DNA from: a virus
DNA: 64,000 nt
Reading direction: 5' to 3' (one strand)
Virus record (IMG/VR): IMGVR_UViG_3300046791_000470
Location: 17,625 to 81,624 of that record
A program made the position numbers and the translations under genes. Positions 5,436 through 42,764 of this stretch are shown here, piece after piece. Position 1 is the stretch's first letter. Every line of letters starts with the position of its first letter. The notes under the pieces were generated by a model, which saw nothing but the letters and a program-made list of their open reading frames with translations, searched no databases and was not told the origin of the DNA.

Positions 5436-5476
5436 GGGCGCCATGATGTATGGCGCCGCCCGTCAATTCAACGCGG
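5436..5476 (-). promoter_or_regulatory. sigma70-type promoter TTGAAT-17-CATCAT-7-ATG (leaderless geometry)
   Basis: -35 at 5471..5466 and -10 at 5448..5443. Shares CCGCGTTGAAT with the promoter at 6059-6069. Confidence 0.6.
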
Positions 5477-6029
5477 AGCTCGGCGGCTCACCTGAGGAGC
5501 CAGGGCGGACGAGCGAGACGGTGGCGACACCGGCCTTGTCGCCCGCGATGCCGCTGCCGGTGACGAGAATCGACATCGCGCAGGTGGCGGTGACCACGCT
5601 GTCCGGGATGGCCAGCTCGAGCACGACGGGGCCGGGGAAGAACGAGGGCGCCGTCACGGGCAGGGTCAGATCGACGTGCCGGGCGTGGCTCGACGAGGCC
5701 AGGCACTGCAGCTTCGCCGAGGCGTTCGCCGCGATGTTGCTGCGCTGGAGGTAGACCCGGAAGCTCTGGATGAAGTCGCCCACGCGGAGCTGCAGCGGGT
5801 AGCGCAGCGGGCGCGAACTCGTGCCGAGCACCCAGTGGTCGCCGTCGAAGGATGGCGCGAGCGGATCGCCGGTCGGCACGGCGGCCTGCGCGGGGTGCAG
5901 GATCTCCGTGAAGTAGGTATCCGGCGTGGGCTCCGCGACGATGGCGCCGGCGAGGGCGGCCTCAGAGTCATCGCAGGCCGGGCAGATGCTGAGCGCGAGG
6001 AGGAGCGGGATCAGGAGTCGGTTCGACAT
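5463..6029 (-). CDS. Lipoprotein of a dispersed phage lipoprotein family (fibre-like beta domain)
   Basis: Signal MSNRLLIPLLLALSICPAC; motif PSFDGDHW...LRYPLQLRVGD shared with 10555-11158 and 42243-42764. Confidence 0.8.
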   Translation of the reverse strand: MSNRLLIPLLLALSICPACDDSEAALAGAIVAEPTPDTYFTEILHPAQAAVPTGDPLAPSFDGDHWVLGTSSRPLRYPLQLRVGDFIQSFRVYLQRSNIAANASAKLQCLASSSHARHVDLTLPVTAPSFFPGPVVLELAIPDSVVTATCAMSILVTGSGIAGDKAGVATVSLVRPGSSGEPPSSALN

Positions 6030-6069
6030 GTCGCGAACCTATCCCGGGGTGCCCGCCTATTCAACGCGG
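6030..6069 (-). promoter_or_regulatory. sigma70-type promoter TTGAAT-17-TAGGTT-6-ATG
   Basis: -35 at 6064..6059, -10 at 6041..6036, ATG at 6029. Confidence 0.65.
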
Positions 6070-6104
6070 CGAGACGTTCGCCGGCTTCACATCGCGGTGG
6101 CCGA

Positions 6105-6554
6105 TCAGGGGTCGCCGCGACCGGCCGCGAAGTAGGACGTGGGGACCTTGTCGAGCCGGAGCCGCGGGCGCGCGTCGGCGTCTCCGAAGATCGGCAGTCC
6201 GTCCACGTCGGACATCAGGCCGAGCTGGAACTGGAAGTCGATCCGCGAGTGGTGCTTGGGCTGCCAGCGCGCGCCCCACCGTCGCGTGAGCCGGCGCGAC
6301 TGCTTGAGCTCCTCGCGGTGCAGCGCGAACTGCGCCGGTGACCATTCCGCGCCCACACGGCCAGCGTCCTCGCCGAACATCGCCTCCGCGTCCTCGCGAG
6401 TCAGCATGCAGCGGATGTCGATGTCGCCGGGCTCCGCGCTCGTGAGCATGGAGCCGACGAGGTAGAGCGGCCCGCCGAACATCATCGCGAGGCCGTTGGC
6501 CTGGCCCTGGAAGATGCTCGCGAAGCTCTCGGCGCTCTGGAGATGGTCGGTCAC
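6105..6554 (-). CDS. Minimal nucleotidyltransferase-fold protein (pol-beta superfamily)
   Basis: GTG start is coupled to the upstream stop. LYLVGSMLTSAEPGDIDIRCML fits the hG[S]...DxD catalytic motif. Confidence 0.6.
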   Translation of the reverse strand: MTDHLQSAESFASIFQGQANGLAMMFGGPLYLVGSMLTSAEPGDIDIRCMLTREDAEAMFGEDAGRVGAEWSPAQFALHREELKQSRRLTRRWGARWQPKHHSRIDFQFQLGLMSDVDGLPIFGDADARPRLRLDKVPTSYFAAGRGDP

Positions 6555-7663
6555 GGGCCAGCGGCCCGGTACTCGGCGCCGTCCGCGACTTCGGCGCGGA
6601 ACCTCTCGAAGGTCGCGCGCGCCCCGGCCTTGTCGGTGGGGCTGCCGTCGACGCCCATCTCCGGTCGCGCGAGGTAGTCGCTCATCAACCGCTGGAGGGC
6701 GCATCCGCCGACGGCCATGCCCGCGGCCTTGGCGCGATCGTAGACGGCCTCCCACGCCGGCGTGGCGCCCTCGGCGAGGGGGCGCAGATCGGCGGCGAGG
6801 TCCGCGATCGCCTCCTGGCTCGCGGCGGCGCAGTCGATGGTCGCCTTCCCTGCGCCGGCCTTGGGCCACGGGCCACAGCCGGCGGCGGACGACACGATCA
6901 CGGCGGACGCGAGCACGGAGACCGCCGTGATCAGCAGCATCGTGGCGATGTGCGCGCCTCGAGCTCGTGCGGCGAGGAGGACATCGCGCGCGGCCTCGTG
7001 CTGGCCGCTGGCCGCGAACCCGGTAGCGAGCGCGTCGGCCACGATGTCGAACGAGATCGACATGTCCGCGCCGAGCGCGCCGCCGAGGTAGAGCAGGGCG
7101 CTGGATCCGAAGCCCGCGACGTAGCCGCCGAGCTGCGTGCGGAACCAGGGGACGCGGCGGAACCCGTGGCGGCGGAGGAGCCACACCAGGAGGACGACGG
7201 CGGCGCCGATGGCCAGGCGGCCCTTGCCGCTCCGCGCGAAGGTCACGAGATCGGCGAGCGTGCCGGCCGGATCGTCGATGCTGGGCAGCGGCAGCGCGGG
7301 CGCAGGCTGGGCAGGCGCGGTGATGGCGTCGGGTTCGAGCGCCGACCCGGCGGCGGCCGGCGGCTCGCTCGCGGGCGGGGGGGCTGGACGGGCTACGCCT
7401 CCGGCTGGCTTGGCGGGCGGGGGAACCGCGAGCCCGGTCACGTCGCTCACCAGGAGGTCGTTATCGATCGGCTTGGCCGAGGCGACGGCGGGCGCGGCGG
7501 CCACGGCCGAGCCGGCGGCGAACGGCGCGGCGATCGCGTGGGCGCTGGCCTCGCCGGCGGTGTGGACGAGATCATCCGTGACGACGCCGAGGCCGAGGCC
7601 GAGGGCGATCACACCGACGAGCGAGGCTGCGGCTCGGAACTTGGCTCTCATTGTGGTCTCCAT
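6551..7663 (-). CDS. Multi-pass membrane protein (holin-like) with internal lipobox-like C-terminal domain
   Basis: N-terminal hydrophobic helix, Pro/Ala linker, several TM segments, then VLASAVIVSSAAGC. Located just downstream of the tail fibre genes. Confidence 0.5.
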   Translation of the reverse strand: METTMRAKFRAAASLVGVIALGLGLGVVTDDLVHTAGEASAHAIAAPFAAGSAVAAAPAVASAKPIDNDLLVSDVTGLAVPPPAKPAGGVARPAPPPASEPPAAAGSALEPDAITAPAQPAPALPLPSIDDPAGTLADLVTFARSGKGRLAIGAAVVLLVWLLRRHGFRRVPWFRTQLGGYVAGFGSSALLYLGGALGADMSISFDIVADALATGFAASGQHEAARDVLLAARARGAHIATMLLITAVSVLASAVIVSSAAGCGPWPKAGAGKATIDCAAASQEAIADLAADLRPLAEGATPAWEAVYDRAKAAGMAVGGCALQRLMSDYLARPEMGVDGSPTDKAGARATFERFRAEVADGAEYRAAGP

Positions 7664-8118
7664 GGTGGCGGCTTGTCGCCGAGGAGATTTTGGAGCTGGC
7701 GCCCGACGCGGCGCAACTCCTCCTCAGCGTCACGGATGATCTTCGCCTGCGCCTCGTTGCGGCGCTTCAGCTCGGCCACGTCATCGAGCAGCCGCGCTCG
7801 CTCGATCTTCTCGAGCGTCGAGGTCTCGACGCGATCGTAGAGCTGCGTGACCGCGATCTTGCCGAACGCGATCAGCGGGATCACGAGGGCGGCGATCGCC
7901 CACCGGATGTTCCGCAGCGCGCGGACGATGCCGACGAGCGGATCGGGGTCCTGGCCGAGCTGCTGCACGACCGGGCCGGTGGGCTGCCGGCGGACGTAGA
8001 CATCGGGGACGCCGTCCACCGGCGTGACGCGCACCATGCGCCGCCCGCTGGACTCCTTGGCGCGCCCGTCGTCCTCGGCGAGCTGCTGGAGGAGCTTCTC
8101 GCGATCGCGTGGCCGCAT
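7648..8118 (-). CDS. Single-TM coiled-coil protein (holin or i-spanin-like)
   Basis: MRPRDREK...WAIAALVIPLIAFGKIAV followed by a heptad-rich tail; lysis-cassette position. Confidence 0.5.
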   Translation of the reverse strand: MRPRDREKLLQQLAEDDGRAKESSGRRMVRVTPVDGVPDVYVRRQPTGPVVQQLGQDPDPLVGIVRALRNIRWAIAALVIPLIAFGKIAVTQLYDRVETSTLEKIERARLLDDVAELKRRNEAQAKIIRDAEEELRRVGRQLQNLLGDKPPPWRPQ

Positions 8119-8123
8119 CCGGG

Positions 8124-8534
8124 TCAGGCTCCTCCGAGCGATGATCGGGCGATCACGAGCTCGGACATGGGAACGAGGATCGATCGCGCGTCGCCGCGGA
8201 TCGCGAACAGGTCGTGGCAGGCGCGGCCGACGGGGAGCAGCCGGGTCTCGGCGGTGGTGAGCGTGAGCACGTAGCGGCCGGAGCCGGTCGCGCCGGCGGT
8301 GGCCTGCTTGGCGAGGAGCTTCCGGCTCGCCGGCGTGGCGAGCGACTTGGCCATCCACGCGAGGTACTCGCCAGCGCCGAGGACGACGGGCGCGCCGGCG
8401 GTGGTGACCAGCTCGACGCGGACGATCACGGTGTCGCCGGTGACGATGCGCAGCGGGCGGCGCTGGTCCTCCGGGATGCCCGGAGCGTAGGGCCGCTCGC
8501 CGTCGTCGTAGACGCATCGCCAGTCGACGTACAT
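8124..8534 (-). CDS. BppU-like Ig-fold baseplate/tail accessory protein
   Basis: IVTGDTVIVRVEL...GRYVLTLTTAETRLLPVGRACHDL pattern typical of BppU N-terminal-like domains. Confidence 0.5.
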   Translation of the reverse strand: MYVDWRCVYDDGERPYAPGIPEDQRRPLRIVTGDTVIVRVELVTTAGAPVVLGAGEYLAWMAKSLATPASRKLLAKQATAGATGSGRYVLTLTTAETRLLPVGRACHDLFAIRGDARSILVPMSELVIARSSLGGA

Positions 8535-8570
8535 TCCGATAGCGATGGTGGCGCCGGCGCGCCGTGGGCG

Positions 8571-9797
8571 CTAGGTGACGGGCCGGACGATGGCCGTGGC
8601 GCCGGTGATGTACCGCGTGGTGGCCGCGGCGCCGGTGGTGGTGAGCGAGATCCAGACCTTCTCGCCGGCCAGAACCTTGACCGGGATCTCGAGGGTCGTG
8701 AAGACGGGCGTCCACACCTGATCGCCGGCGCTGGCCGCCGAGGCGGCCGGATCGCTGAGCGTGTTCGTGCTGTTCGTGCCGGAGATGAGGGTGGCGACGA
8801 ACTGCGCCGCGGCGAGGCCCTGCGCCACCTCGAGCACCACGCCCTCGAGCACCTCGCCGGGATGCACCTTGAGCGGGATCAGGAGCGGCGCGGCGGCCAC
8901 GGTGTTGGCGTGCCAGCGACACGGCCCGGCGTCCGAGTGCCCGGCGAGGGTCCACGCGGCGCCGCTGTCGATCATGTCGAACGGCTGCGTGGTGCGGGTC
9001 TCCGTCGCGAACAGCGTCCCGTAGACGGTCCAGCGCCACGTCGCGCCGAAGACGTACGACACGCGGCCGACGACGCGCGGGTAGGTCCCAGCGGTGAGCG
9101 ACGGCTGGCCGGAGTCGTCCACGAACACGGCGTCCCCGATCGTCGGCGTCCCCGCGCCCGCGATCGGCGCGATCCCGAACACGCGGACGATCGCCAGCGC
9201 GCCGGCCGTGAGGACGCCCGGCTCCACGCCGTCGATGATCACGCCGAGCTGGCCGCGGACGGCATCCTCGGAGCCGGTGGCGGGGGTGATGACCGGCACC
9301 TCGTGGAGCCCGCTGACCGTCGTCGTCATACCGCTGACCTTGACGATGGTTCCGGCCGCGAGGCCGCCGGGGGTCTCGGCGGTGATGAGCGGGCCGCCGC
9401 ACGCCAGATCGTCGAGCGCCTTGATCATGTTGCGGTTCACCGCGAGCGCCCACCCCTTCACGGAGCTCGCCTCGGTGGTCTCGGACGCCGCGGGGATGCG
9501 CGCGTAGTCCAGCTCGCGGAGCACGCTGATCGCGCAGGTGTCGATCGCCTCGGAGCCGAGGCCGGCGTCCACCACGAGCCGGAGCTGGTAGGTGCCCTCC
9601 TTGAGCGGCGTGAACTGCGGGTTCTCGATCGTCGTGTTCGAGAGCGCGTCGGCGGCGCCCTCGGGCTGATCGACGATGCTCCACGCGTAGGAGACCTCGT
9701 CGCCCACGTCGTCGTTCGAGAGGAGCACGGGCGTGGCGGTCTGGACGTTCACGGCCGAGACGGAGACGGTGTTCACTTCGATTCTTGCTCTGGACAT
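8571..9797 (-). CDS. Tail fibre/receptor-binding protein with N-terminal PKD/Ig-like domain
   Basis: YAWSIVDQPEG...PQFTPLKEGTYQLRLVV (PKD-like), a fibre shaft, and a C-terminal beta-rich domain. Tail-distal position. Confidence 0.75.
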   Translation of the reverse strand: MSRARIEVNTVSVSAVNVQTATPVLLSNDDVGDEVSYAWSIVDQPEGAADALSNTTIENPQFTPLKEGTYQLRLVVDAGLGSEAIDTCAISVLRELDYARIPAASETTEASSVKGWALAVNRNMIKALDDLACGGPLITAETPGGLAAGTIVKVSGMTTTVSGLHEVPVITPATGSEDAVRGQLGVIIDGVEPGVLTAGALAIVRVFGIAPIAGAGTPTIGDAVFVDDSGQPSLTAGTYPRVVGRVSYVFGATWRWTVYGTLFATETRTTQPFDMIDSGAAWTLAGHSDAGPCRWHANTVAAAPLLIPLKVHPGEVLEGVVLEVAQGLAAAQFVATLISGTNSTNTLSDPAASAASAGDQVWTPVFTTLEIPVKVLAGEKVWISLTTTGAAATTRYITGATAIVRPVT

Positions 9798-9842
9798 GCC
9801 CCGGAAATTACATGCTCGGGGCGCGCCGTGGGAGCCGAAGCG

Positions 9843-10166
9843 TCAGGACGCCGCGGTCGCCGCAGCTTCGTCGCGCCGCGGCCGGCGCACGTAGCCGTCC
9901 CCGAGCTTCGTCGCGTGATCGCGCGCGATCAGCCACGCGATGGCGTCTGCGACCTGGTGGCGCTTCGTCGGTCCGCTCTCCGCCTCCACCAGCCGGATCA
10001 CCTGGATCTGCCGCTTGGGGATGGTCTCGTGGAGCTTCCCGAGGACGAGCGCCCGGAACCAGGACATCTCCTCGTCGGAGCGGACGGGTCGCGCGGCCTC
10101 GGCGGCGAGGCGCGCGGCTTGGGCCTTGAAGAATCGGGCGGCGGACGCGGCGGAGGTGTCGTGCAT
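9843..10166 (-). CDS. Small basic helical protein, paralogue of 10182-10496 (winged-helix-like)
   Basis: Shares DTSAASAARFF, RLVxAE, TxRHxVxxAIxWLxAR and GxGxVR with its neighbour. Confidence 0.7.
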   Translation of the reverse strand: MHDTSAASAARFFKAQAARLAAEAARPVRSDEEMSWFRALVLGKLHETIPKRQIQVIRLVEAESGPTKRHQVADAIAWLIARDHATKLGDGYVRRPRRDEAAATAAS

Positions 10167-10181
10167 CCGTCTAGCCTCGCT

Positions 10182-10496
10182 TTACCGGGCGCCGCCCGTC
10201 AAGACAGAACAGGCAGCAGCGAGCGTCTCGCGCACGAAGCCTGCGCCCCGCCTGGCGAGCTCGCCGCGAGCTGCGAGCCAGTCGATCGCGTTCATGACGT
10301 GGTGCCGAGGCGTCCCGGGCCGCTCTGCGCAGACGAGGCGGAGCACCTCGGAGCGCCGGCGGGGGACGGTCGGATCGAACATCGCGAGCACCCACAGGCG
10401 GTACTCGTTAACCTCGTCGTCGGTGCGGTTCCCGCGGGCAGCGAGGAGCCTGAAGAACCGGGCCGCGGAGGCCGCCGACGTGTCGCGCTGTGACAT
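10182..10496 (-). CDS. Small basic helical protein, paralogue of 9843-10166
   Basis: Start MSQRDTSAASAARFF at 10496; clear tandem paralogy. Confidence 0.7.
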   Translation of the reverse strand: MSQRDTSAASAARFFRLLAARGNRTDDEVNEYRLWVLAMFDPTVPRRRSEVLRLVCAERPGTPRHHVMNAIDWLAARGELARRGAGFVRETLAAACSVLTGGAR

Positions 10497-10554
10497 GAGC
10501 GCCCACTCTCGCCTTTGCGGGGACACCCGGTCAACGGCAGTAAGCGGCAGCCGG

Positions 10555-11158
10555 TCAGTGTCGGATGTCGACTTCGGCATTCATGGCGCGGTCACCAGGC
10601 TGCCAGTTGCCGTACACCCTGATCGAGTAGGCAGTACCGGACTGCACCGGCACCGAGAGCCCGCCCGCTTCGAGGGTGACGATTCCGCTGGGGTGCGTCG
10701 TGGACACCTGATCGCCGATGGACTCGTGGTAGCCACGCACGCCAACGTGCTGCTCGAGGAACGCGGAGACGGGGTTCGGAGGTGTGCTTGTCGACGAACA
10801 CGCGGAACCCGACGATCGTGTCTCCGGCCTGCACGTGGAACGGGTACCGCACCGGGATCAGGCCGGTGCCGAACGTCCACGAGTTCCCGTCGAACACCGG
10901 GCCGTTCGCGTAGCCGGCACCAACGTGCCCTTCAGCCGCATCGATCTGGATCGAGATCGGCGCGGGCGGCGGGGGAGGAGGTGCCGGCTCACAGCACCCG
11001 TCCGCCGTGACACCGGCCGATTCGCAGATGGCGGGGCATCCGTCGTCCGCGGCGGTCTGTGTTTGGGAGCTGGTGGCGGTCGCCGTATCGGCGACGCAGG
11101 CGCCGGCCAGCGCGAGGAGGATGGCTGCGAGGGTGAACTTGATCGGTGGGCTGAACAT
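10555..11158 (-). pseudogene. Lipoprotein of the dispersed family, split by a +1 frameshift at the G4 run 10771-10774
   Basis: LLALAGAC lipobox and PVFDGNSW...VRYPFHVQAGD. Removing one C after TCC GAA CCC gives VSAFLEQH...YSIRVYGNWQPGDRAMNAEV, which aligns with the paralogues' C-termini. Confidence 0.75.
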
Positions 11159-11205
11159 GCGGTGCGCATGTTGACCCAGCGCCACGCGTGATCGCCAGCC
11201 CAAGA

Positions 11206-11799
11206 TCAGAAGGCGGCGGCGCCGAACGTGAGCGAGCCGCTCGCCCAGATCATCGCGTCCTCGAGCGCCGGATCGGTGTCGTTCACCGTCCCGGTGTTCG
11301 TGATCATTCGCGAGATGATCCGGCCCTGGAGAGCCAGGGAGCCGAGCGGCGCGCTGATCGGCGGCGAAGCTGCGGCGAGCCGAGCTTGAACCAGCGCGTC
11401 CACCGTCACGAGCTGGCTGCCCATCCCGGCAGCCGCCTGGAGGCCGAGGCTCACCCGGTCGAGGTAGTCGTGGCCGTGGTTGTGCGCTGCGTGCAGCAGC
11501 ACGGTGCCGCCGTTGGTCTCATCCGCGCTGACCGCGTAGAACGAGGCGGCACCGCGGAGCCCGAGCTGGCCAAGACCGATCTGGACGCCGGCCGGTGCAT
11601 CGAGAGCCAGCGGTGTGATGATCGGAGAGCCGGCGTTCCACTGCACGCGCCAGGTGCCCGTGAAGTGAGCCGGGCCAGCGGCGTGGGGCGACACGACCGG
11701 CGATTGGACGATCGTGTCGGTGTCGTCGGTGACGCAGGCACCAGCGAGCGTCAGAAGGAGAAGGAGGGCCGCGGCGGGGATTTTCTGGTCGGTGGTCAT
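11206..11799 (-). CDS. Lipoprotein carrying a copy of the C-terminal domain of the adjacent tail fibre
   Basis: LLLLLTLAGAC lipobox. WRVQWNAG...LALDAPAG...LQGRIISR...TNTG...LEDA matches the C-terminus of 11853-13037. Confidence 0.9.
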   Translation of the reverse strand: MTTDQKIPAAALLLLLTLAGACVTDDTDTIVQSPVVSPHAAGPAHFTGTWRVQWNAGSPIITPLALDAPAGVQIGLGQLGLRGAASFYAVSADETNGGTVLLHAAHNHGHDYLDRVSLGLQAAAGMGSQLVTVDALVQARLAAASPPISAPLGSLALQGRIISRMITNTGTVNDTDPALEDAMIWASGSLTFGAAAF

Positions 11800-11852
11800 G
11801 TGCGTGTATTTCTAATCCACGCAAAACCAGATGGCTAGCCCTGCATGTATTC

Positions 11853-13037
11853 TTACGCCAGGTAAGATACCGTAGCGACTCCCTGAACGATTGCGTCCTC
11901 AAGCGAGGTGTCGGTGTTGTCCGAGGCGCCGGTGTTGGTCAGGTAGCGCGAGATGATCCGGCCCTGGAGAACCTTGGTTCCGATTCCCACGTCGATCGGC
12001 GGGGTTGCGGCTGCCAGCGCCGTCTGGAGGCTCGCATCGACCGTCGTCACCGGCACGCCAGTGCCAACCACACCCTGTAGGCCGATGGCGTACGCGTTGG
12101 TGTTCGAGTGTCCGGTCTGGTGTGATGCGGTCAGGTTGCAGGTGCCGCGCGTGATCTCGCCGCCGACGACGTAGAACGAACCAGCTCCGCGCAGCGACAG
12201 CGGCCCGAGCGCGACCTGAAGGCCGGCCGGCGCGTCGAGCGCGAGCAGGGTGTGGATCGGAGCCCCGGCGTTCCACTGGACGCGCCACGAGGCGCCCACG
12301 GGCAGCATGCCGCCATGGCCGAGCAGCGGGCGGCGGTCCACGAGCGCGTCCGTGTCGATCGTGACCACGCTCGGCGCGACGTTGATCCGTCCGATCTTGA
12401 CGTAGCCGGAGGTAGTCGACGGCTCGACCTCGGCGCCAGTAGCCGCCTCCGCGCCGATCTTGTAGCTGAGCCCCACCGTCGAGGCGCTCGGGCTGGAGAC
12501 GAAGCCGGTCCGGCCGTCGAGGCTGAACGCGAGCGTCTTGTAGAACATGTGGTCCAGGAAGGACTTCGTGGCCGTGTCGAGCTGTCGACGCGTCACCAGG
12601 TTCTCGAGCCGCCGGTCCACCTTGACCTCGATGATGTCGATGCGCGACAGGCCGGGGCCGGGCGCCGTCGGGACCGTGAAGATCGCAGGCGCGTTGAGGT
12701 AGACCGGCTTGAAGCTCGACCGATCGTCAACGCCCTCGAGGTCCGTCGCGCCGATGTCGAACGGCAGATCGAGCGCGTCGTAGATGAAGCCGAAGCCCGC
12801 ACTGACCTGCACGGACATCGCGATCGGGCTCGCGGGGACGACGCGCATCCCGTCGCCGATGAAGCCGCTGTGCGAGGTGATCGCGGAGGTGCCTCCACCG
12901 GCGACACCGGAGCCGCCGACGAGCGCGCGCAGCACGTCGCGGAGCGTCCGGTCGAGCTGCGACTCGAGGCGGTTGAAGTCGCTGGAAAGGGGCCGCTCGC
13001 GCAGGCCGAGATTGACGCGGTCAAATGGATTGTTCAC
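11853..13037 (-). CDS. Tail fibre / baseplate-proximal receptor-binding protein
   Basis: Directly follows the baseplate wedge genes. N-terminal baseplate-attachment-type region (RIDIIEVKVD) and a C-terminal beta domain. Confidence 0.75.
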   Translation of the reverse strand: MNNPFDRVNLGLRERPLSSDFNRLESQLDRTLRDVLRALVGGSGVAGGGTSAITSHSGFIGDGMRVVPASPIAMSVQVSAGFGFIYDALDLPFDIGATDLEGVDDRSSFKPVYLNAPAIFTVPTAPGPGLSRIDIIEVKVDRRLENLVTRRQLDTATKSFLDHMFYKTLAFSLDGRTGFVSSPSASTVGLSYKIGAEAATGAEVEPSTTSGYVKIGRINVAPSVVTIDTDALVDRRPLLGHGGMLPVGASWRVQWNAGAPIHTLLALDAPAGLQVALGPLSLRGAGSFYVVGGEITRGTCNLTASHQTGHSNTNAYAIGLQGVVGTGVPVTTVDASLQTALAAATPPIDVGIGTKVLQGRIISRYLTNTGASDNTDTSLEDAIVQGVATVSYLA

Positions 13038-13041
13038 GGGG

Positions 13042-14184: not shown

Positions 14185-14191
14185 GGGGTCC

Positions 14192-16883: not shown

Positions 16884-18997
16884 GGGACGCCGAACTCCTC
16901 GTCCTCGTCGGCCCTGGCCTTGCCCACGGACACGGTGGGCTGGAGGTTCCGCGGGCGCGTGGGCTTGTCGCAGTTCGCGAGCGGACCTGCCTTGATACAG
17001 CCGGTTACGTTGCCCGCGTCGTAGTCGCCGAAGTTGTGATTTTCGGGCGCGGGTTCCTCGATCATCCGCGCGTTGAGGATCGAGGAGCTGCTCACCGGCG
17101 TGACCTTGGCCTTGTTGTGATCGCCCGCCTTGTCGACGGGGGCGGTCCGCACGATGCGCTTCTTTGGGATCTCCTGCGCCATCACGCCATGGCGCGGCAC
17201 GATGTAATTCTGGAACGCGATCGAGGTGCGGATGCCCGTGGACCACTCGTACTCGACGCCCGAGACCTGGTAGACGGCGAGCAGCTCGTGCACCGCGCCG
17301 CGCGCGAGCGCGACCAGCGCGCGCGCCACCAGCCGATCGCCGAGGCGCCGGTGGAGCACGTCCACCTCCTCCGAGAACGTGCGCCGCGCGGCGTCGTTCA
17401 CCTCGGACACGACGGGCGCGATCGAGCGCAGCGCCGTCGCGTCCACCACGAACTCGATCGGCTCGGTGGGGCGCAGGCGCAGGATGTCCGGATCGGTGTT
17501 GTCGCCGCCGAACGTCGCCAGGTTCCGGGTCTCGGCCTGGCCGCCGGTCTCGCCGCGGCCGATCTCCTCGTAGATGCCGTGTGCGATCCGCGTGAGCTGC
17601 TCCACCGATCGCACGCCGTACATCGGCACGCGGAGCACCTCGTCGGCGCCCTTGGTCTTCGCGGTCACGGTGTCGGTGGTGGGCCACTGCCCGAAGATCA
17701 GCCGCTGCTTACCGGCCGCGCGATCGTCGTACGAGATGCACTGGATGGTAGGGACCACGGCGCCGGCGAACTTCCGCTCAAACGAGAGCCGCTTCACGTC
17801 GCGGCCATACACCAGCCGGCGGATCCGGATCGACTCGCTGCCGACCTGACGCGCGAGCCCGCCGGCGAACGGCGTGGCGATCGTGGAGCGCTTCGAGGCG
17901 ATGTCGAAGATCCGCCGCACGGGCCGGATCCACAGCGTGGAGCCGACGATCTGAGGCATCGCGCCGACGATCGTGCAGTAGTTCGTGATGAGGTCCCAGT
18001 AGCTCGTCTTGTTGCCGGTGGACGGCGTGGAGCTCGAGCCACCGCCGGCGGCCTTCTGGCGCACGCGCGTCATGCCCTCGGCGTCGCCCGGGGACGGCAC
18101 CTCGCCGTCCTCCCACTCGGCGGTGTCGACGGCGACCGCCATGCGGAGATCCGCGTCGGTGCCCATCGTCCGGAGGATCTGCTGGACCACCTCGTGGATC
18201 GGCTTGGTGAGATCGAGCGCCGAGATCTTGGCGGGCGGCGGCTTGCCATCGATGAGGATGCCGCGGATGTCCCGGCCCTTGATCTGGATCGTCGAGCGCC
18301 CCTCGTCGAGGTCCACGCTCCACGTGTCGGCGGTCCCGTAGAACAGCAGGGTGGCGTTGTTGACGCCGGCGCGGCCGGTCACCGGGTCTACCTGATCTGT
18401 CGTCGTCTTGAGGATCGAGAACGGGCGCCCGGTCGGATCCTTGTCGCCACGCATGCCGCGCGCGTAGTCGTCGGCGGACACCGTGCCGAGGTGGATCTCG
18501 ACGCCCACGGCCCGGATCATCCGCGGGTCCACCGGGAACTCGAGGAAGTCGAACACGAGCGTGAAGGTGGCGGCGGTGCGGATGTGCGGCAGCGTGAACA
18601 CGCCGCGCTTCGGAACGCGGTTGGCGATCACCGTGAAACGATCCGTGCCGTACGTGAGCGGCACGCCGTCACCCGGCCGGCCTGGGATGTCGCCGCCGGT
18701 GACCGCCGGAGAGTCGTTGCCCGGCAGCCCCACCGCCGAGAACTCCGGCCGGGTCTCGTCGAGCTCGGCCAGCGCGTCGTTCGCGATCGCGCGCGCCACG
18801 CCGATGGTCACCGTCGGCTCGTGGACGCCGCGGCGCGGGCGCTTGCCCTGCTGGGCACGGCTCTCCTGCGTCGTGGCGTCGATCTGGCGCGCCGTGACGG
18901 ACTCGCCGGTGCCCGAGATCTGGAGGCTCTCGTCGAAGCGGATCGTGAGCTTCACGACGCAGCTCGGGAACCACGAGTTGTCCAGCGGGTTCATCAT
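16880..18997 (-). CDS. Baseplate hub protein (gpD/gp44-like)
   Basis: Start MMNPLDNSW at 18997 with ATGA overlap. TIQIKGRDIRGILID...YWDLITNYC...LWIRP; position between the LysM-like gene and the spike. Confidence 0.75.
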   Translation of the reverse strand: MMNPLDNSWFPSCVVKLTIRFDESLQISGTGESVTARQIDATTQESRAQQGKRPRRGVHEPTVTIGVARAIANDALAELDETRPEFSAVGLPGNDSPAVTGGDIPGRPGDGVPLTYGTDRFTVIANRVPKRGVFTLPHIRTAATFTLVFDFLEFPVDPRMIRAVGVEIHLGTVSADDYARGMRGDKDPTGRPFSILKTTTDQVDPVTGRAGVNNATLLFYGTADTWSVDLDEGRSTIQIKGRDIRGILIDGKPPPAKISALDLTKPIHEVVQQILRTMGTDADLRMAVAVDTAEWEDGEVPSPGDAEGMTRVRQKAAGGGSSSTPSTGNKTSYWDLITNYCTIVGAMPQIVGSTLWIRPVRRIFDIASKRSTIATPFAGGLARQVGSESIRIRRLVYGRDVKRLSFERKFAGAVVPTIQCISYDDRAAGKQRLIFGQWPTTDTVTAKTKGADEVLRVPMYGVRSVEQLTRIAHGIYEEIGRGETGGQAETRNLATFGGDNTDPDILRLRPTEPIEFVVDATALRSIAPVVSEVNDAARRTFSEEVDVLHRRLGDRLVARALVALARGAVHELLAVYQVSGVEYEWSTGIRTSIAFQNYIVPRHGVMAQEIPKKRIVRTAPVDKAGDHNKAKVTPVSSSSILNARMIEEPAPENHNFGDYDAGNVTGCIKAGPLANCDKPTRPRNLQPTVSVGKARADEDEEFGVP

Positions 18998-20232
18998 CGG
19001 TTGGCGTCCAGCGCCGGGATGATGACGATGGTCCCCGCGGGGGCCGTGTTCGAGTCGAGGGCGTTGAACAGCCGGATGCGCGCCGCCTCCTCCGGGGTCC
19101 CGTAGAAGCGCATCGAGAGCGCCTGGCAGTCCTCGTCCTGCTTGAGGAGCACGATCGCGATCACGTGCGCGTCCATCTCGCGGAGCGTGTCGTAGCGCTG
19201 GCGCGCGGCCAGGTGCTTGACGGAGCGCGCGGCGCGGACCGACTGTCGGATCGCGCACGCGGCCTGGATCATCTTGCCGATCGGGACCGTCAGGAGGTCC
19301 GCCGGATCCTCCACCGCCGTCATCGCCGCGTAGGAGAGCCCGTCGAGCTCGCCGATCAGCGTGGCCGCCTCGTCGCGCACGAGCGAGCTGATCGACATCA
19401 GCCGCCGCAGCGCATCGGCCGTGCCGGTCACGCTCTCGATGCGGGTCCGCGCCGCCTCCTGCGCCCGGAGGATGCCGCGCTTGATCCGACCCACGCGGTT
19501 ATCGATCCGGTCCGCGAGCGACGGCTCGAGGTCCACGCCGTCCAGGGCCGTCTTGTCGTAGAGGTTCGTGAACGCGGCGGACATCCGCTGCGAGAACTCC
19601 AGCGATCCCGTGCCGACGCCGCCGAGCGCCGGCACGCCGGCGTCCTCGTCGCGGCCGATCCACTTGAACTTGATCGTCCACTCGCAGTCGTGCGCCGTGA
19701 GCCAGTTCGGGACGAACTGCTCGATGCGGCCGACGCGCACGATGTGGCGCCACTGCACGCGGAGCACCTGCCCCTTGAGCGCGATGTCCTCGAACAGCGC
19801 GACTACCTCCTCCGTCGTGCGGAGCCGGCTGTTGTCGACGCTGATCGCCTCCACGCCGTCCACGATCTCGGACGCCGCCTGGCCGACCTCGACCATGCGG
19901 GCGCTCGTCTCGCCGATGAACCGCGTTTTCCAACACCCCTTGATCTCGGTCGGGTCCCACTTCCCGCCGAGCGCCTGCTGGCTGGTCTGGGAGAATCCGG
20001 GGTAGTCGGTCTCGTCGATCCGGTGCGAGATGCCGAACGCGACGCCCTTGTAGGGAAGCGCGCGCTCGGTGAGCCGCACGGTCCGCTGATCGGGGCCGGT
20101 GAGTTCCTTGAACGTGAAGGCGGCGGCGCCGTTGTCGGTCTGGCCGTAGGCGCGGCCGACCGTGACCTTTGGGATCTTCTGGCCGGTCCCTGTGGCCTGG
20201 CCGATCGTGACGGTGGGCGTGCGTCCGGCCAT
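18994..20232 (-). CDS. Tail tube initiator / baseplate protein with C-terminal LysM-like (gpX-like) domain
   Basis: Follows the tape measure. C-terminal EDCQALSMRFYGTPEEAARIRLFNAL...GTIVIIP. Confidence 0.7.
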   Translation of the reverse strand: MAGRTPTVTIGQATGTGQKIPKVTVGRAYGQTDNGAAAFTFKELTGPDQRTVRLTERALPYKGVAFGISHRIDETDYPGFSQTSQQALGGKWDPTEIKGCWKTRFIGETSARMVEVGQAASEIVDGVEAISVDNSRLRTTEEVVALFEDIALKGQVLRVQWRHIVRVGRIEQFVPNWLTAHDCEWTIKFKWIGRDEDAGVPALGGVGTGSLEFSQRMSAAFTNLYDKTALDGVDLEPSLADRIDNRVGRIKRGILRAQEAARTRIESVTGTADALRRLMSISSLVRDEAATLIGELDGLSYAAMTAVEDPADLLTVPIGKMIQAACAIRQSVRAARSVKHLAARQRYDTLREMDAHVIAIVLLKQDEDCQALSMRFYGTPEEAARIRLFNALDSNTAPAGTIVIIPALDANR

Positions 20233-20235
20233 GGA

Positions 20236-21873
20236 TCACCGCATCGAGTAGAGCGGCCGGAGCCCGCTGTCGAGGCGGCGCTCGCCGAGCGCGGCGAGCT
20301 CGTCGCCGAACGCGACCGCGACGCGCCCGCCGTCGATGCCCTCGGGGAAGTTGTTGTTGATGTCGAAGCTCGAGCCGCGGAAGTCCTGGTAGACCGCCGC
20401 CGCCGGCTTGCCCTCGGGGTCCTTGCCGCTGCCGGCCACCTTGGCTTTCGTCCCACCCCCCATGTCGATGTAGTCGATCTTCAGTCCTGGGATCTGGTTG
20501 ATCGCCCAGATCACGCCGTTCAGCAGCGCCACGAGGCCGATCATCACCTTTTCGACTACCCACATCAGCTTGTCCATCCACCAGGCGAACATCAGCAGCG
20601 TCACCAGCAGCGCGCCGCCGAGGATCGCGAGGATCGGCTTGATGGCCTCGAACAGCTTCCCGAGGACGCCGAACACCATCATCGCGATGTTCTTCATCTT
20701 CTCGATGAGCGGCCCGAGGACACTCACGAACATGTCGCGAATGCCAAAGACGTTGCGGCGCAGCAGCTCGAACGCGGCGATCACGATGCTGATCACCAGG
20801 CCGATGACGCCGAGGCGCCCCACCACCGTGCTCAGGATGCGCATCATCGGCCCGCCGGCGGAGGCGAACATGCCGATGCCTGGATTGGCCGCCTTCGCGG
20901 CGAAGTAGTCCATGCCGCCGGACGCCGCGGCCTTGCCGGCCATCATCCGGTTTGCGCCGCCGATCACCTGCTTGCCGCGATCGAGGAGCCCCATCGAGCC
21001 GCCGGGCATGAAGACGTTGGCCGCCTTCGCGGCGAGCATCAACGCGAGGTAGGTCTTCGCGAGCCCGACGACGATTCCCATGTGCTCGGCGAGGAAGCGG
21101 CCGATGCTGGCCGTGATCGGCTCGATCGCTTTGAACGCCGAGGTGATCTCGTTGAGGATCATCGTCACGGCGGGCATCAGGTTCTTGTAGAGCGTGCCGA
21201 TCATCGAGCTCCACGCGCTCGCGAGCCCGCGCCGGACGGCCAGCATCTCCTTGTGCATGGCCAGCGCGCGCCCGTCGATCAGGTTGGCGCCGCCGAGGGT
21301 CTCCGTCTTGATCTTGCGCAGCCGCTCCGCGCCGCCCTGCAGCATCTCCATCATCTGGCCGGCCTGCGTCGCCGGGATGTTGAAGCTCTTGATCAGGTCG
21401 TGGATGTGCAGCCGGCCGGCCTTCGCGGCGTCGGCCATCTGGTAGAGCCGCTGCTCGGGGCCGGCCTTCACGCTCACCCCGAGCCTGGTCATGAGCTGGG
21501 AGAGGGTCTGCGACTGCGTGCCGGCCATGGCCAGCTTCGCCGAGAGCCTCGACATGCTGAGGATCGTTTTCTCGGCCGCCTCCTGACCGATCCCGCTGCT
21601 CTCGAACATCTCGAACATCGAGTGCGCCGAGGACGCGGCCATGCCGGTCATGGCGTGCACGCGGCCGACGGCCTGGTAGAGCCGATCGGTGTCCTGGATC
21701 GCGGTGCCGACCTGCCAGATCCCAGCGAGCCCGCCGACCGCGCCGCCCCACGCGCCGACCGCCCCGAAGCCCTTGGCCAGCCGATCGGCGGCGCCGGCGA
21801 GCCCGTTCAGCTTGCGCGTCCCGTCCTCGGCGCCCTCGATCTTGATCCGCTGGTTGAGCTCGGTCTCGGTCAT
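20236..21873 (-). CDS. Tape measure protein (short, 545 aa)
   Basis: Ala/Gly-rich helical protein with hydrophobic C-terminal segments, lying after the tail chaperone. Confidence 0.85.
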   Translation of the reverse strand: MTETELNQRIKIEGAEDGTRKLNGLAGAADRLAKGFGAVGAWGGAVGGLAGIWQVGTAIQDTDRLYQAVGRVHAMTGMAASSAHSMFEMFESSGIGQEAAEKTILSMSRLSAKLAMAGTQSQTLSQLMTRLGVSVKAGPEQRLYQMADAAKAGRLHIHDLIKSFNIPATQAGQMMEMLQGGAERLRKIKTETLGGANLIDGRALAMHKEMLAVRRGLASAWSSMIGTLYKNLMPAVTMILNEITSAFKAIEPITASIGRFLAEHMGIVVGLAKTYLALMLAAKAANVFMPGGSMGLLDRGKQVIGGANRMMAGKAAASGGMDYFAAKAANPGIGMFASAGGPMMRILSTVVGRLGVIGLVISIVIAAFELLRRNVFGIRDMFVSVLGPLIEKMKNIAMMVFGVLGKLFEAIKPILAILGGALLVTLLMFAWWMDKLMWVVEKVMIGLVALLNGVIWAINQIPGLKIDYIDMGGGTKAKVAGSGKDPEGKPAAAVYQDFRGSSFDINNNFPEGIDGGRVAVAFGDELAALGERRLDSGLRPLYSMR

Positions 21874-34473: not shown

Positions 34474-34475
34474 GA

Positions 34476-34901: not shown

Positions 34902-34936
34902 GCCGTGAGTGTGCACATTCACGTGCACATCGTCAA
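34902..34936 (-). promoter_or_regulatory. Boxed promoter TTGACG-ATGTGCACGTGAATGTG-CACACT
   Basis: -35 at 34936..34931, 17-nt spacer, two TGTGCAC boxes 12 bp apart. Confidence 0.75.
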
Positions 34937-34950
34937 GCACGCGGCATGCG

Positions 34951-35349: not shown

Positions 35350-35388
35350 GGCCGATCATGCTCAGCGGCGGGCTGCGGAGGCGCAAGG

Positions 35389-36434: not shown

Positions 36435-36581
36435 CAGATGGCTCCGGCAGGGTCTCGATCGCGGCCTCGATGAGCTTGGCCATCGGCATGCCGCGCCGCT
36501 CGGCCTCGGCCTTCAGCCGCACGTAGAATGCGGCGCTTACCGACACCTTGCACCCGTTGGGCTTCTTGGGGGGGGGCTCAT
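36424..36581 (-). pseudogene. Ribbon-helix-helix protein out of frame at a G9 tract (36568-36576)
   Basis: ATG 36581 overlaps the upstream stop. With 10 (or 7) C it reads MSPPPKKPNGCKVSVSAAFYVRLKAEAERRGMPMAKLIEAAI; with 9 it stops after 14 codons. Confidence 0.65.
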
Positions 36582-36871
36582 CACGCCGCCGCCATCAGGA
36601 GCTGCTCGACCAGATTCTCCGGGGAGATGCCCTGGCGCTCGGCCGCGGCGCGGAGTCGGTCGGACACGTGGCGACCCAGCGTGACCGGGCCGTCCGCCTG
36701 ATCCTCCGCAGCGGCGCGCAGCGAGTGGGCGAGCATCCAGCTCGAGCGGTCGCTACCCGCCTGCGCGGCGGCCTCGGCGAGGATCTTGGCCTGCTCGGCG
36801 GAGGCCAGAACCTGGATGCGGGCGGGTGGGGTGACGGCCGGGCGGCCGGACTTACGTGGCTTCTTGGGCAT
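36581..36871 (-). CDS. Tandem ribbon-helix-helix regulator (candidate repressor)
   Basis: RIQVLASAEQAKILAEAAAQAGSDRSSWML and VTLGRHVSDRLRAAAERQGISPENLVEQLL are two RHH-like units. Confidence 0.75.
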   Translation of the reverse strand: MPKKPRKSGRPAVTPPARIQVLASAEQAKILAEAAAQAGSDRSSWMLAHSLRAAAEDQADGPVTLGRHVSDRLRAAAERQGISPENLVEQLLMAAA

Positions 36872-36906
36872 GCACTGACTATGCACATGCGCGTGCACAG
36901 TGTCAA
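36872..36906 (-). promoter_or_regulatory. Boxed promoter TTGACA-CTGTGCACGCGCATGTG-CATAGT-6-ATG
   Basis: -35 at 36906..36901 and -10 at 36883..36878. Confidence 0.8.
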
Positions 36907-36938
36907 CCGGGCGACCGTGCACCCGACCGAGTGAGCGG

Positions 36939-37475
36939 TCAGATCGGGTGGTCGTAGGTCAGCCGCACGGCGCCGATGCAGAGCCCGGCCTGGTCCGCGG
37001 CGAGCTCGAACCAGTGCACGGCGCCGCCCTCGACGATCGTGTCCACCAGATCGAACGGCACGTCGTGCCACAGGTCCGGCACGTTGAAGACCGAGACCGG
37101 AGCCAGTGGACCGGGCACGCTGCCGCCGTTCGGGGCGATGCTGACCGACCGGATCGCCAGATCGGCCGAGCGGTTGCCGGCCATCGCGATCGTCATCGAC
37201 AGCATCCGATCGCCCTCGACGAGGGTTGGCAGGACGGCGAACCGGCCGGCGCCGTAGCTCAGCATGCAGCCGTCGGAGGTGCCCGTGAAGCCGTTGAAAT
37301 CCGGCGTCCAGTTGGTGTGCACGACACCACCGATCGCGCTGATCACCTCGGTGGCCGGCGGTTTGGGCGCGGGCGGCGGCGCGACGGCCTGATCCGGCGG
37401 CGCGGCGGTGGCGCTCGGCGTGGCCGTGCAGGCGGGGGCGAGGAGGAGGGCGAGGAACAGAAGGGAGGCGCGCAT
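36939..37475 (-). CDS. Lipoprotein, more distant member of the fibre-like-domain family
   Basis: MRASLLFLALLLAPAC lipobox, Pro linker, LPTLVEGDRMLSM...IGAVRLTYDHP. Confidence 0.75.
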   Translation of the reverse strand: MRASLLFLALLLAPACTATPSATAAPPDQAVAPPPAPKPPATEVISAIGGVVHTNWTPDFNGFTGTSDGCMLSYGAGRFAVLPTLVEGDRMLSMTIAMAGNRSADLAIRSVSIAPNGGSVPGPLAPVSVFNVPDLWHDVPFDLVDTIVEGGAVHWFELAADQAGLCIGAVRLTYDHPI

Positions 37476-37519
37476 GCACCAGAGCGTACAGCGCGCCGAT
37501 CCGACGCTACAGGCGGGCG

Positions 37520-37699
37520 TCAGGCGGGCGGGACGATGCGGACGCTCATCCCGGCGATCCGCCCGGCGAGCTGCACGAGCTTCAGCGCGATCCACCGGCG
37601 CCAGCGGCGGCGCGGCGCGGGCGCCACGAACTGGATCTCCAGCACGGCGCACGGGCCGGCGAGCCGCACGATCTCCGTCCGAACCACGCGCTCCTTCAT
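37520..37699 (-). CDS. Small basic protein coupled to the portal gene
   Basis: ATGA overlap with the portal stop. Confidence 0.5.
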   Translation of the reverse strand: MKERVVRTEIVRLAGPCAVLEIQFVAPAPRRRWRRWIALKLVQLAGRIAGMSVRIVPPA

Positions 37700-39636: not shown

Positions 39637-39676
39637 CGCCCGAGGATCACGCCCGGCCCGAGGCCGAGCAACCCGC

Positions 39677-41239: not shown

Positions 41240-41807
41240 CTGCGGGCCGCTCCGCCGGTGGCTCGTCCTCGGACTCCTCCGGCGAGGGCTCGATGTCGAT
41301 CACCGTGGGCTGCGCCGGCGCTACGAGCGACCCGCGCGCGCGCGCCAGCGCCAGCGTCGCCGCGGCGTGATCGATCAGGCGCGCCGCCTCGGCCTCGGTA
41401 CTGGACGAGGTGATCGCTGGTCCGCTGATCGAGCTGGGGTCATAGCTGCCGTCGATCTTGCAGATCTGGTCGGCCGCCTTGATCGCCGCTCGGAGCGCGT
41501 CGACGGAGCCGATCGCGAGCAGCCGCTGGACGATCATCATGTGCAGCCCGCGGTTCCGCGCGCGCTTCCGATCGGTCAGCTCCGCATCGGCGTCGCCGAG
41601 CTCCTCGAGCGCCTTGTTGACGTAGACGCGAGCCTGCTGCCGGTTGACGGTCCACGTCTTGGCCGGGATGTTCTTGTCGGGGTCGGCCTCCTGCGTGGTC
41701 TGGCACCAGTCGATCACCCACTTCGGATCAGAGCCGGTGACGAGCAGGCTCTTGATCGCGACGATCCGCGCGGACACCTCCGGCGTGTGCTTGCCCTTGG
41801 CCATCAC
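41229..41807 (-). CDS. terS: Terminase small subunit
   Basis: Directly upstream of and overlapping TerL. Helical, with AAIKAADQICKIDG. Confidence 0.75.
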   Translation of the reverse strand: MMAKGKHTPEVSARIVAIKSLLVTGSDPKWVIDWCQTTQEADPDKNIPAKTWTVNRQQARVYVNKALEELGDADAELTDRKRARNRGLHMMIVQRLLAIGSVDALRAAIKAADQICKIDGSYDPSSISGPAITSSSTEAEAARLIDHAAATLALARARGSLVAPAQPTVIDIEPSPEESEDEPPAERPADAN

Positions 41808-42061
41808 CGCACCCGGGGCACGGCAGCGGAGGCGAGCAGCTCACGCCGCGCAGCGTCCGTGCGGATCGTCCAGCCGACGAGCTCGGCCAGCCAAACCGCG
41901 TGGAGCTCGCAGTATCCGGCGCGCGCGGCGGCCAGGATCGCCTCGGCCTGGACCATGGCCACGTCCACCACCTGGCGCCAGCACGGGCCGACGATCGCGC
42001 CGATCAGACCCTCGAGGTCGGGATACTCACGCGTCCGGCAGGTGCTGCACGTGTATCCCAC
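41804..42061 (-). CDS. Small hypothetical protein
   Basis: Coupled to terS. Confidence 0.45.
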   Translation of the reverse strand: MGYTCSTCRTREYPDLEGLIGAIVGPCWRQVVDVAMVQAEAILAAARAGYCELHAVWLAELVGWTIRTDAARRELLASAAVPRVR

Positions 42062-42242
42062 GACCCGGCCACTATACCCGGGCAGGTCACGGAAATCGTA
42101 GGTGGCGCGCCGGCGGGGCCGTGACCGGCCGGAGAAACGGAGACGGCTCGGGCCGCCGCCGGCGTCGTCACGGTCCGAGGCTACCGCGCGAGCTGGCCGG
42201 GCGTCAGGCGCTCACCGGAGTGGCGTGTGCTACCAGATCTGC

Positions 42243-42764
42243 ATGTTCCGACTCCTGAGCGCGCTCGTCGTCCTCCTCGCCGCCTGCAATCAGCCCGATC
42301 TCCACTCGGAGCCGAGCGCGCTCATCGCCCCGGCGCCCCCGCCCGCCGGCACCCTCACGATCCTACCGATCAGCCCGGCGGCTGCGATCACTACGGCCTT
42401 CGGTCCCTCGTGGGACGGCGATGTCTGGTCCATCACCAAGAGCGGCGACGCGCTCCGATACCCGGTGCCGGTGATCGTCGGCGACACCCTCACGGAGTGG
42501 GCCGTGTTCGCGCGCCGATCCACGGTGGGCGCCGTCCTGTCGGCGCAGCTACAGGTGTTCGACGCGGTGGACCTGCGTCACTACGACGTTGGGCCGATGG
42601 TCACGAACGGCGATCCGGTCACCGGCTACTTCCCGCTCGAGACCGCGATCCCGCCGGTGTTCGTGCACGAGGACTTCTCGGTCTCGGTGCTCGTGATCGG
42701 CGAGGGCACGCCCGGCGACATCGTGGGGACCGCGAACGTTTACGTGATGCGGCAGTGGCAGTGA
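42243..42764 (+). CDS. Lipoprotein of the dispersed family, inserted against local gene orientation
   Basis: MFRLLSALVVLLAAC lipobox; PSWDGDVW...LRYPVPVIVGD...SAQL...SVLVIGEGTPGD. Confidence 0.8.
   Translation: MFRLLSALVVLLAACNQPDLHSEPSALIAPAPPPAGTLTILPISPAAAITTAFGPSWDGDVWSITKSGDALRYPVPVIVGDTLTEWAVFARRSTVGAVLSAQLQVFDAVDLRHYDVGPMVTNGDPVTGYFPLETAIPPVFVHEDFSVSVLVIGEGTPGDIVGTANVYVMRQWQ

Follow-up and report, generated by a model that had tools for sequence, protein, structure and literature searches.

What might several predicted lipoproteins be doing in a single phage genome, when the domain that they display belongs to the same family as the tip of tail fibres? The question is raised by a 64,000-nucleotide stretch of viral DNA (hereafter, the window), which takes in bases 17625-81624 of a viral contig from IMG/VR, 87.5 kb long and with a GC content of 71%. 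The virion type of the contig is that of a myovirus, as it carries genes for a tail sheath, a baseplate wedge, a tape measure and a major head protein, besides a terminase and a portal. A first-pass annotation of the window had described a dispersed family of lipoproteins with a fibre-like domain, comprising three clear members and two distant ones. All five correspond to real open reading frames (ORFs), with a G+C content at third codon positions (GC3) of 0.86-0.96. The three clear members, which we call A, B and C, are as follows (E values are from a deep hidden Markov model (HMM) of the family).

5463-6029, minus strand: A, a 188-residue predicted lipoprotein with a signal peptide, a short linker and the family domain at residues 40-178 (E 3e-36).
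10778-11158, minus strand: N-terminal half of B, with a signal peptide, a lipobox, a Cys-containing linker and the first half-domain, up to ...FVDKHTS (HMM positions 2-63, E 6e-18).
10771-10774, minus strand: frame change of B, a CCCC run in which, by comparison with the intact relative P0004, three C would preserve the frame (…KSTSQPVSVFLEQ…).
10555-10776, minus strand: C-terminal half of B, in the +1 frame (NPVSAFLEQ…DIRH, then a stop; HMM positions 59-132, E 6e-18).
42243-42764, plus strand: C, a 173-residue predicted lipoprotein with a lipobox at Cys15 and the family domain at residues 36-173 (E 3.6e-40).

A and C aligned with 38% identity over 119 residues (BLASTP, E 3e-21), and both have intact frames with a coding-type GC3 of 0.89-0.92 (0.92 for A). 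The two halves of B matched contiguous parts of P0004, namely residues 129-186 (53% identity) and 187-260 (62% identity, E 7e-28), and abutted exactly on that protein, as a single gene read in two frames would. Judged by sequence homology, A and C are thus true paralogues and B is a further copy, interrupted by a single surplus C; protein identity among the three is about 30-38%. The extra C is the sole defect of B, which is otherwise undamaged, and the break therefore reflects either a mutation that arose very recently or a misassembled homopolymer. The latter is a real possibility, because two out-of-frame G9 tracts had been noticed elsewhere in the contig in an earlier reading.

The family is marked by three motifs, P-x-[FWY]-D/N-G-x2-W, R-Y/F-P-x5-G-D and G-x-G-x2-G-D. 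The first-pass annotation had proposed a motif of this kind, and our three-member alignment confirmed its presence in A, B and C, with one correction: the residues between R-Y-P and G-D are five, not four. The frameshift that it had assigned to B was borne out by the comparison with P0004. The genes are indeed placed singly, with one of them on the opposite strand. A is the penultimate gene of a late minus-strand block, B is located between two fibre genes, and C is a lone plus-strand gene flanked by minus-strand blocks and adjoining the packaging genes; neither A nor C is adjacent to any fibre gene.

The lipoboxes that had been described in front of all three proteins are canonical in C (LLAA|C, at Cys15) and in B (LAGA|C, at Cys21), but that of A is atypical (ALSI|C, followed by CPAC). 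Across the family, a Cys was found at position 11-24 behind a hydrophobic stretch in 51 of the 52 lipoprotein-type representatives; position -3 was L or V in 37 and position -1 was A, G or S in 44, yielding a consensus of L/V at -3, A/S at -2 and A/G/S at -1. The family thus fits the definition of a bacterial lipoprotein signal, which asks for a positively charged n-region, a hydrophobic h-region and a lipobox of the form [LVI][ASTVI][GAS]C within about 15-30 residues, lipidation itself being a prediction. The retention of the lipobox in nearly all representatives implies selection for export and lipidation.

To what do these domains belong? A word-index protein search with either C or the tip of the fibre encoded at 8571-9797 (see below) returned the query itself only. 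In contrast, an exhaustive HMMER search with the three-member profile retrieved 156 cluster representatives at E<=1e-3, 51 of them at E<=1e-10; as representatives stand for clusters at 50% identity, the family comprises at least 150 such clusters. We classified 141 domain rows by architecture, 53 being of the lipoprotein type and 71 being longer proteins that end in the domain. The lipoproteins are about 160-190 residues long, with some tandem-domain or Cys-rich-domain fusions, while the longer proteins span 220-590 residues, carry the domain at their extreme C-terminus and have N-termini resembling those of tail fibres, with one recurring type (M-x-T-x-P-N-M-x-L-x-L-P…W…D-A-H-D-H-T-x-G-K-G). 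The N-terminus of P0121 matched the tail-fibre family phrog_38233 (E 1e-13), and P0061, P0160 and P0047 sit in tail modules, beside SU10_adaptor and Peptidase_S74 genes of the contigs L012 and L013. By homology, therefore, the domain of the lipoproteins and the C-terminal tips of some 70 fibre-like proteins from other phages form one family, the long forms being regarded as fibres on the basis of those examined, that is, of a tail-module position or of an N-terminus matching a tail-fibre PHROG. A single residue, Asp124 of the domain (within P-G-D), is nearly invariant, being conserved in at least 90% of the family alignment.

In a maximum-likelihood tree of the 141 domain sequences, the two kinds of protein were split with a support of 95 in the Shimodaira–Hasegawa-like approximate likelihood-ratio test (SH-aLRT). 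One side contained 48 lipoproteins, including A and C, plus 5 short or truncated rows; the other contained the 71 fibre-type rows, 12 short ones and 5 lipoprotein-like ones. Given this split, the lipoprotein form is an old lineage and no fresh copy of the resident fibre. The three proteins of the window also fell into different sub-clades, with C grouping with P0010 and P0020, and the relative of B, P0004, grouping with P0006, P0008 and P0009; A, B and C are therefore not recent duplicates of each other.

P0004, P0005 and P0022 carry, on one side or the other of the family domain, a Cys-rich domain of about 70 residues (…C…C…GYC…C…C…), which also occurs as a separate lipoprotein in another phage contig (L017, 6313-6717, plus strand), where it adjoins a family member. 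The linker of B (window positions 11000-11100) retains a short Cys-containing stretch (DDGCPAICESAGVTADGCC).

The two proposed distant members were examined together with a further lipoprotein, for which the first-pass annotation had drawn a parallel with the family:

8622-8918, minus strand: C-terminal tip domain of the tail fibre encoded at 8571-9797, a distant family member.
36939-37475, minus strand: D, a 178-residue predicted lipoprotein, encoded between the portal gene and RHH/methyltransferase genes.
11206-11799, minus strand: a predicted lipoprotein outside the family, which copies the tip of the adjoining fibre (11853-13037), a domain of a different kind.

The fibre 8571-9797, whose N-terminus holds a PKD domain, was matched by the deep family HMM at residues 294-392 (HMM positions 25-122; E 1.1e-5 in a search of the 772 ORFs of the window). 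A profile comparison (hhalign) of its tip with the family gave a probability of 49% and an E value of 1.7e-4 over 91 columns, with about 21% identity, and the alignment began at the very motif that had been noted previously. We accept the C-terminus of this fibre as a distant family member. D proved more elusive: it showed no pairwise BLAST or HMM match to the family, and hhalign with its single sequence gave a probability of 0.35%. It has, however, five lipoprotein relatives at 44-53% identity, and the resulting six-member profile aligned with the main profile over 96 columns reaching the C-terminus (probability 55%, E 1.2e-4). Hence, of the two distant members proposed, the fibre tip is supported, and D is a borderline case detected by profile–profile comparison, possibly a very distant member with the same sandwich fold. 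The lipobox of D reads LAPA|C, with a Pro at -2.

The lipoprotein encoded at 11206-11799 is 47% identical to the tip of the neighbouring fibre 11853-13037 over 177 residues (E 1e-47), so the parallel suggested earlier holds: as far as sequence can tell, it shows the same conversion of a fibre tip into a lipoprotein within this phage. We also considered this lipoprotein and its fibre as family members in their own right, and rejected them (hhalign probability 0.2% against the family profile). Unlike A, B and C, which belong to an old and widely distributed lipoprotein lineage, this protein is a recent copy of a resident fibre, although the joining of a lipobox signal to a fibre-tip domain is common to all. 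A lipobox scan found no further lipoproteins in the window; all five predicted lipoproteins of the phage therefore carry domains of the fibre-tip type or similar sandwiches. No match was obtained for A, C or D in Pfam, PHROG, NCBIfam or PADLOC (E<=0.1) or among Protein Data Bank (PDB) sequences.

The domain of C was modelled by AlphaFold2 (AF2) as an eight-stranded sandwich, with a predicted local distance difference test score (pLDDT) of 80 and a predicted template-modelling score of 0.75. The model has the eight-strand jelly-roll topology of solved modules of the carbohydrate-binding module (CBM) type or the TNF/C1q type, and Foldseek matched it, among others, to TNF-family ligands, C1q domains and the C-termini of tailspikes or minor tail proteins. 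In this respect, and in its predicted trimeric state, the domain resembles the trimeric TNF/C1q-type jelly rolls at the C-termini of phage fibres and spikes such as Kp7 gp52 and CBA120 TSP4. The resemblance is one of fold, as identity to CBM22, CBM15, CBM16, CBM36, CBM4/9, CBM6 and TNF/C1q modules is 3-12%, with no Pfam CBM match. In the AF2 model of D (pLDDT 75) the strands are ordered as in C, and the two share matches in AFDB (A0A5C7PT49, A0A1E7ITL5, A0A538AXW3, A0A0F9FN31 and A0A0S7ZYL0) as well as in BFVD. For the tip of fibre 8571-9797, the fold assignment rests on an ESM Atlas model, a CBM4_9-like sandwich that shares a CBM4_9 chitinase cluster with C. The folds of the lipoproteins and of the fibre C-terminus, which had been expected to agree, thus do not differ in the predictions.

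When C was modelled in three copies, the score was 0.96, against 0.14 for the best of three controls, with a partner pLDDT of 95, and the homotrimer runs agreed at >=97% of contacts. In a calibration set, 20 of 30 proteins known from their structures to be pairs of one chain attained the mark, as did 1 of 23 proteins solved as single chains, but these counts are only a rough guide here, where an alignment of our own and three copies were used. The modelling supports a homotrimer of the family domain of C, although the input alignment includes fibre forms, from which the signal may stem.

To place the lipoproteins in their genomic context, we inspected eight contexts besides the window, leaving out P0004 and P0010, whose contigs were too short. 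All eight are phage contigs, with a GC content of 68-75% and of myo-, sipho- or podovirus type, and the lipoprotein gene lies mostly between fibre and lysis genes (TM denotes a transmembrane segment):

L005: tail genes, then a member, another lipoprotein and a GH25 lysozyme.
L007: J-like host-specificity protein, then a TM plus coiled-coil gene, P0018 and Amidase_2; P0018 overlaps the end of the TM plus coiled-coil gene by 4 bp and is followed by two small genes and the Amidase_2 endolysin.
L016: J-like protein, then a member and GH25.
L015: Mu-like baseplate genes, then a fibre, a member and a homologous TM plus coiled-coil gene, with a 4-bp overlap.
L009: two members abut a fibre gene from the opposite strand, and a third copy lacks a signal peptide.
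L017: a member (5655-6179) among early helix-turn-helix (HTH)/GerE genes, convergent with a fibre.
L012: a lipoprotein with tandem domains (LHG|C) and the fibre P0061 form a convergent pair, their stop codons being 7 bp apart.

L012, L015, L017 and the window each have both a lipoprotein and a fibre that carry the domain. The tip of the fibre in L009 (7651-8919) was not detected by the family HMM. The third copy in L009 (9627-10112, minus strand) is a 161-residue member with a Pro-rich insert, encoded directly after an SU10-type adaptor gene; instead of being a lipoprotein, it may be a form carried by the virion. In L013, a podovirus-like contig with a fibre-type member, the tail genes are followed by a gene (18388-21263, plus strand) for a protein of at least 1600 residues matching ADPrib_exo_Tox (PF03496); this may be a virion protein, internal or ejected, that has an ADP-ribosyltransferase domain.

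Two suggestions about the expression of these genes found no support. The first-pass annotation had credited at least one of them with a promoter of its own, in the manner of morons; consensus scans, however, found neither a sigma-70 promoter nor an intrinsic terminator beside A, B, C or D, and there were no TGYGYAY tandem boxes upstream of A, B or C. It had also envisaged expression in a lysogen. Across the 87.5 kb contig we saw no integrase, repressor-type switch or host flank, so that a lysogenic state is not established; on the contig beyond the window, and in the first 4 kb of the window, there are phage replication genes only (DnaB, SNF2 and UvrD helicases, RecT, YqaJ, ParB and DUF5131). 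The contig ends fall inside phage genes and CheckV completeness is 68%. The phage may be virulent or the contig may simply be incomplete. A tandem pair of boxes (TGTGCAC…TGTGCAT; 36881-36899, minus strand) is found directly downstream of D and upstream of an RHH-like gene, and for this reason D seems to end the terminase–portal transcription unit; similar box pairs are found at 34911, 43672, 46315/46327, 47455 and 47557.

As to function, we tentatively favour the view that A, B and C are receptor-blocking envelope lipoproteins analogous to Llp and Cor. Exclusion lipoproteins encoded beside receptor-binding protein (RBP) genes are already known, Cor of phi80, N15 and T1 being a superinfection-exclusion lipoprotein of the outer membrane. 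Llp is a T5 outer-membrane lipoprotein that blocks FhuA, the receptor of pb5 (PMC9586334). Each of A, B and C combines a lipobox signal peptide with a short tether rich in Pro and Ala, followed by a jelly-roll domain of about 135 residues that is predicted to trimerize and is homologous to a fibre tip. The domain would be exported and lipid-tethered to the envelope of the infected cell, where it could bind the class of ligand recognised by fibre tips of the same family, either a glycan (the fold being CBM-like) or an outer-membrane protein. With the receptor occupied or distorted, further phages of the same or related types would fail to adsorb or to inject, and progeny would be spared loss on cell debris; A, B and C, with D and the 11206 lipoprotein, could cover several receptor specificities. 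Export, ligand, timing of expression and exclusion are all features that we infer for A, B and C.

Receptor blocking is favoured by the paralogy, the conserved lipoboxes, the homology to fibre tips, the siting in phages next to fibre and lysis genes, the sandwich fold and the trimer prediction. Like Llp and Cor, the proteins of this family are phage-encoded lipoproteins, occur in virulent as well as temperate phages and often adjoin or converge with a fibre or RBP gene (as B does in the window and members do in L009, L012 and L017, though not A and C). The action proposed, on the phage receptor from the host side, would also be analogous (PMC9586334). On the other hand, the family has no sequence relation to Llp or Cor and no PHROG or Pfam match, its domain is about 135 residues long and predicted to trimerize as opposed to the roughly 60 residues of monomeric Llp, and, unlike those proteins, it is homologous to fibre tips and occurs in several divergent copies per phage. 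Since T5 is virulent, an Llp-like role needs no lysogen.

A number of observations weigh against receptor blocking. The lipoproteins form an old clade apart from the fibre clade and share only about 21% identity with the resident fibre tip; a common ligand specificity is therefore not implied, and masking of the phage's own receptor, as put forward in the first-pass annotation, does not follow directly from an old and separate lineage. It is difficult to envisage how an abundant glycan receptor could be blocked stoichiometrically, and a lipoprotein facing the periplasm would have no access to the outer surface bound by fibre tips, although Llp gets round this problem by allostery from the periplasmic side. 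No sequence match links the proteins to Llp, to Cor or to a model in PHROG, Pfam or PADLOC, the frame of B is broken, and the type of the host envelope is itself something we infer. Lastly, many copies lie in or beside lysis cassettes, adjoining a conserved TM plus coiled-coil gene, which fits a role in lysis equally well.

The main rival explanation is, in fact, that the lipoproteins are components of lysis or egress. Anchored in the outer membrane, they would act together with the TM plus coiled-coil protein and the membrane protein encoded at 6551-7663 in the manner of an o-spanin (or, where fused, of a u-spanin) and contribute to the disruption of the outer membrane or the envelope during lysis. 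The relevant genes of the window are the following:

6551-7663, minus strand: a multi-pass membrane protein with a Cys-containing C-terminal domain.
About 7648-8117 (ending at 7648), minus strand: a TM plus coiled-coil gene, preceding the former.

We regard this explanation as improbable, but the arrangement of the genes lends it some substance. A lies two genes after the membrane protein gene, itself behind the TM plus coiled-coil gene, and homologues of the latter adjoin family lipoproteins in both L007 (9276-10004) and L015 (8519-8998), in each case with the 4-bp overlap mentioned above. P0018, moreover, carries a homologue of the membrane protein fused behind its family lipoprotein domain (residues 225-441; 28% identity over 244 residues, BLASTP E 1e-6), so that an N-terminal lipobox is combined with C-terminal TM segments in the topology of a unimolecular spanin such as T1 gp11; it is the sole member so built. 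The members in L005 and L016 lie a few genes upstream of a GH25 lysozyme, that in L007 precedes two small genes and the Amidase_2 endolysin, and between 6400 and 8300 we found no small embedded lipobox ORF fit to be an o-spanin. The outer-membrane lipoprotein signal is likewise shared with the spanins (Rz/Rz1). Yet known o-spanins of the Rz1 type are short and Pro-rich, unlike a folded, trimer-forming sandwich of 135 residues, and the neighbouring TM plus coiled-coil proteins, with cytoplasmic N-termini of 70-180 residues, are unlike Rz. Three or more copies per phage, homology to fibre tips and pairing with fibres (including the tandem-domain form of L012, convergent to its fibre gene) are not expected of spanins either, nor are copies distant from lysis genes, such as C, beside the packaging genes, and 5655-6179 of L017, among early HTH/GerE genes. 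The TM plus coiled-coil adjacency of L007 and L015 does not apply to B or C, no PHROG spanin match was obtained, and no endolysin was recognised in the window by Pfam, PHROGs, NCBIfam, PADLOC or PDB sequence searches of the neighbouring genes. The TM plus coiled-coil gene and 6551-7663 may nevertheless form a conserved lysis or exclusion module.

Two other accounts appear less likely. The lipoproteins might be general envelope accessories, that is, lipid-anchored glycan-binding lectins that alter the host surface (adhesion, exopolysaccharide handling, predation or motility) or retain progeny or host polymers; the Cys-rich fusions in P0004, P0005 and P0022 and the tandem-domain forms do suggest modular surface proteins, and several unrelated lipoprotein genes lie beside members in L005, L009 and L017. 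Still, we deem this account unlikely, because all nine contexts examined, the window included, are phage DNA, because the repeated co-occurrence with fibres of the same family points to a role linked to phage receptors, and because the lack of a visible integrase makes a long-term benefit to a lysogen doubtful. It is also conceivable, if barely so, that the genes are a silent reservoir of alternative fibre-tip cassettes, available for recombination and host-range switches, or decaying remnants: B is frameshifted, the copies and a fibre tip belong to one domain family, and the genes are dispersed, as cassette donors can be. But the lipoboxes in 51 of 52 representatives imply selection on export, the split between lipoprotein and fibre clades is deep (SH-aLRT 95), and the copies are only about 21-38% identical to the fibre at the protein level, with DNA identity too low for homologous exchange. 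Furthermore, the frames of A and C are intact with a coding-type GC3, and no inverted repeats were found in the three short regions searched.

If receptor blocking is the true function, the sequence of such a lipoprotein would report the class of receptor used by the phage and its rivals, it would provide a computable link from fibre tips to exclusion genes in uncultured phages, and a simple evolutionary route would lead from an attack domain, the fibre tip, to a defence protein, the lipoprotein. The broadest version of this scenario, to which we give rather less credence, is that a trimeric fibre-tip domain was turned into a stable family of receptor-blocking lipoproteins in phages of high-GC hosts, and that the repertoire of A, B, C, probably D, and the 11206 lipoprotein shuts several receptors against self and rivals; were this so, the conversion of RBP tips into lipoproteins would be a general and recurrent route to superinfection exclusion. 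A role in lysis, in turn, would reveal an unusual spanin-like component with a folded, trimer-forming domain. In the literature searched we found no description of a family of fibre-tip-homologous lipoproteins present in several divergent copies per phage, nor is there a Pfam, PHROGs, NCBIfam or PADLOC model for it, and a family profile would annotate many unnamed phage genes.

As for the remaining genes, the window contains no tRNA, and its portal protein found no relative among the genome contigs. Three neighbours of the family genes (6108-6530, 6551-7663 and 8124-8534) had no match in Pfam, PHROGs, NCBIfam, PADLOC or PDB sequences. The last gene of the late block, next to A, encodes a protein of 313 residues (4503-5444, minus strand) whose sole match was phrog_20814, of unknown function (E 4e-13). 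Between B and the fibre 8571-9797 lies a small paralogous pair without a family match (9843-10166 and 10182-10580, both on the minus strand), in which both proteins contain the stretches …SAASAARFF… and …WLIARD/WLAARG….

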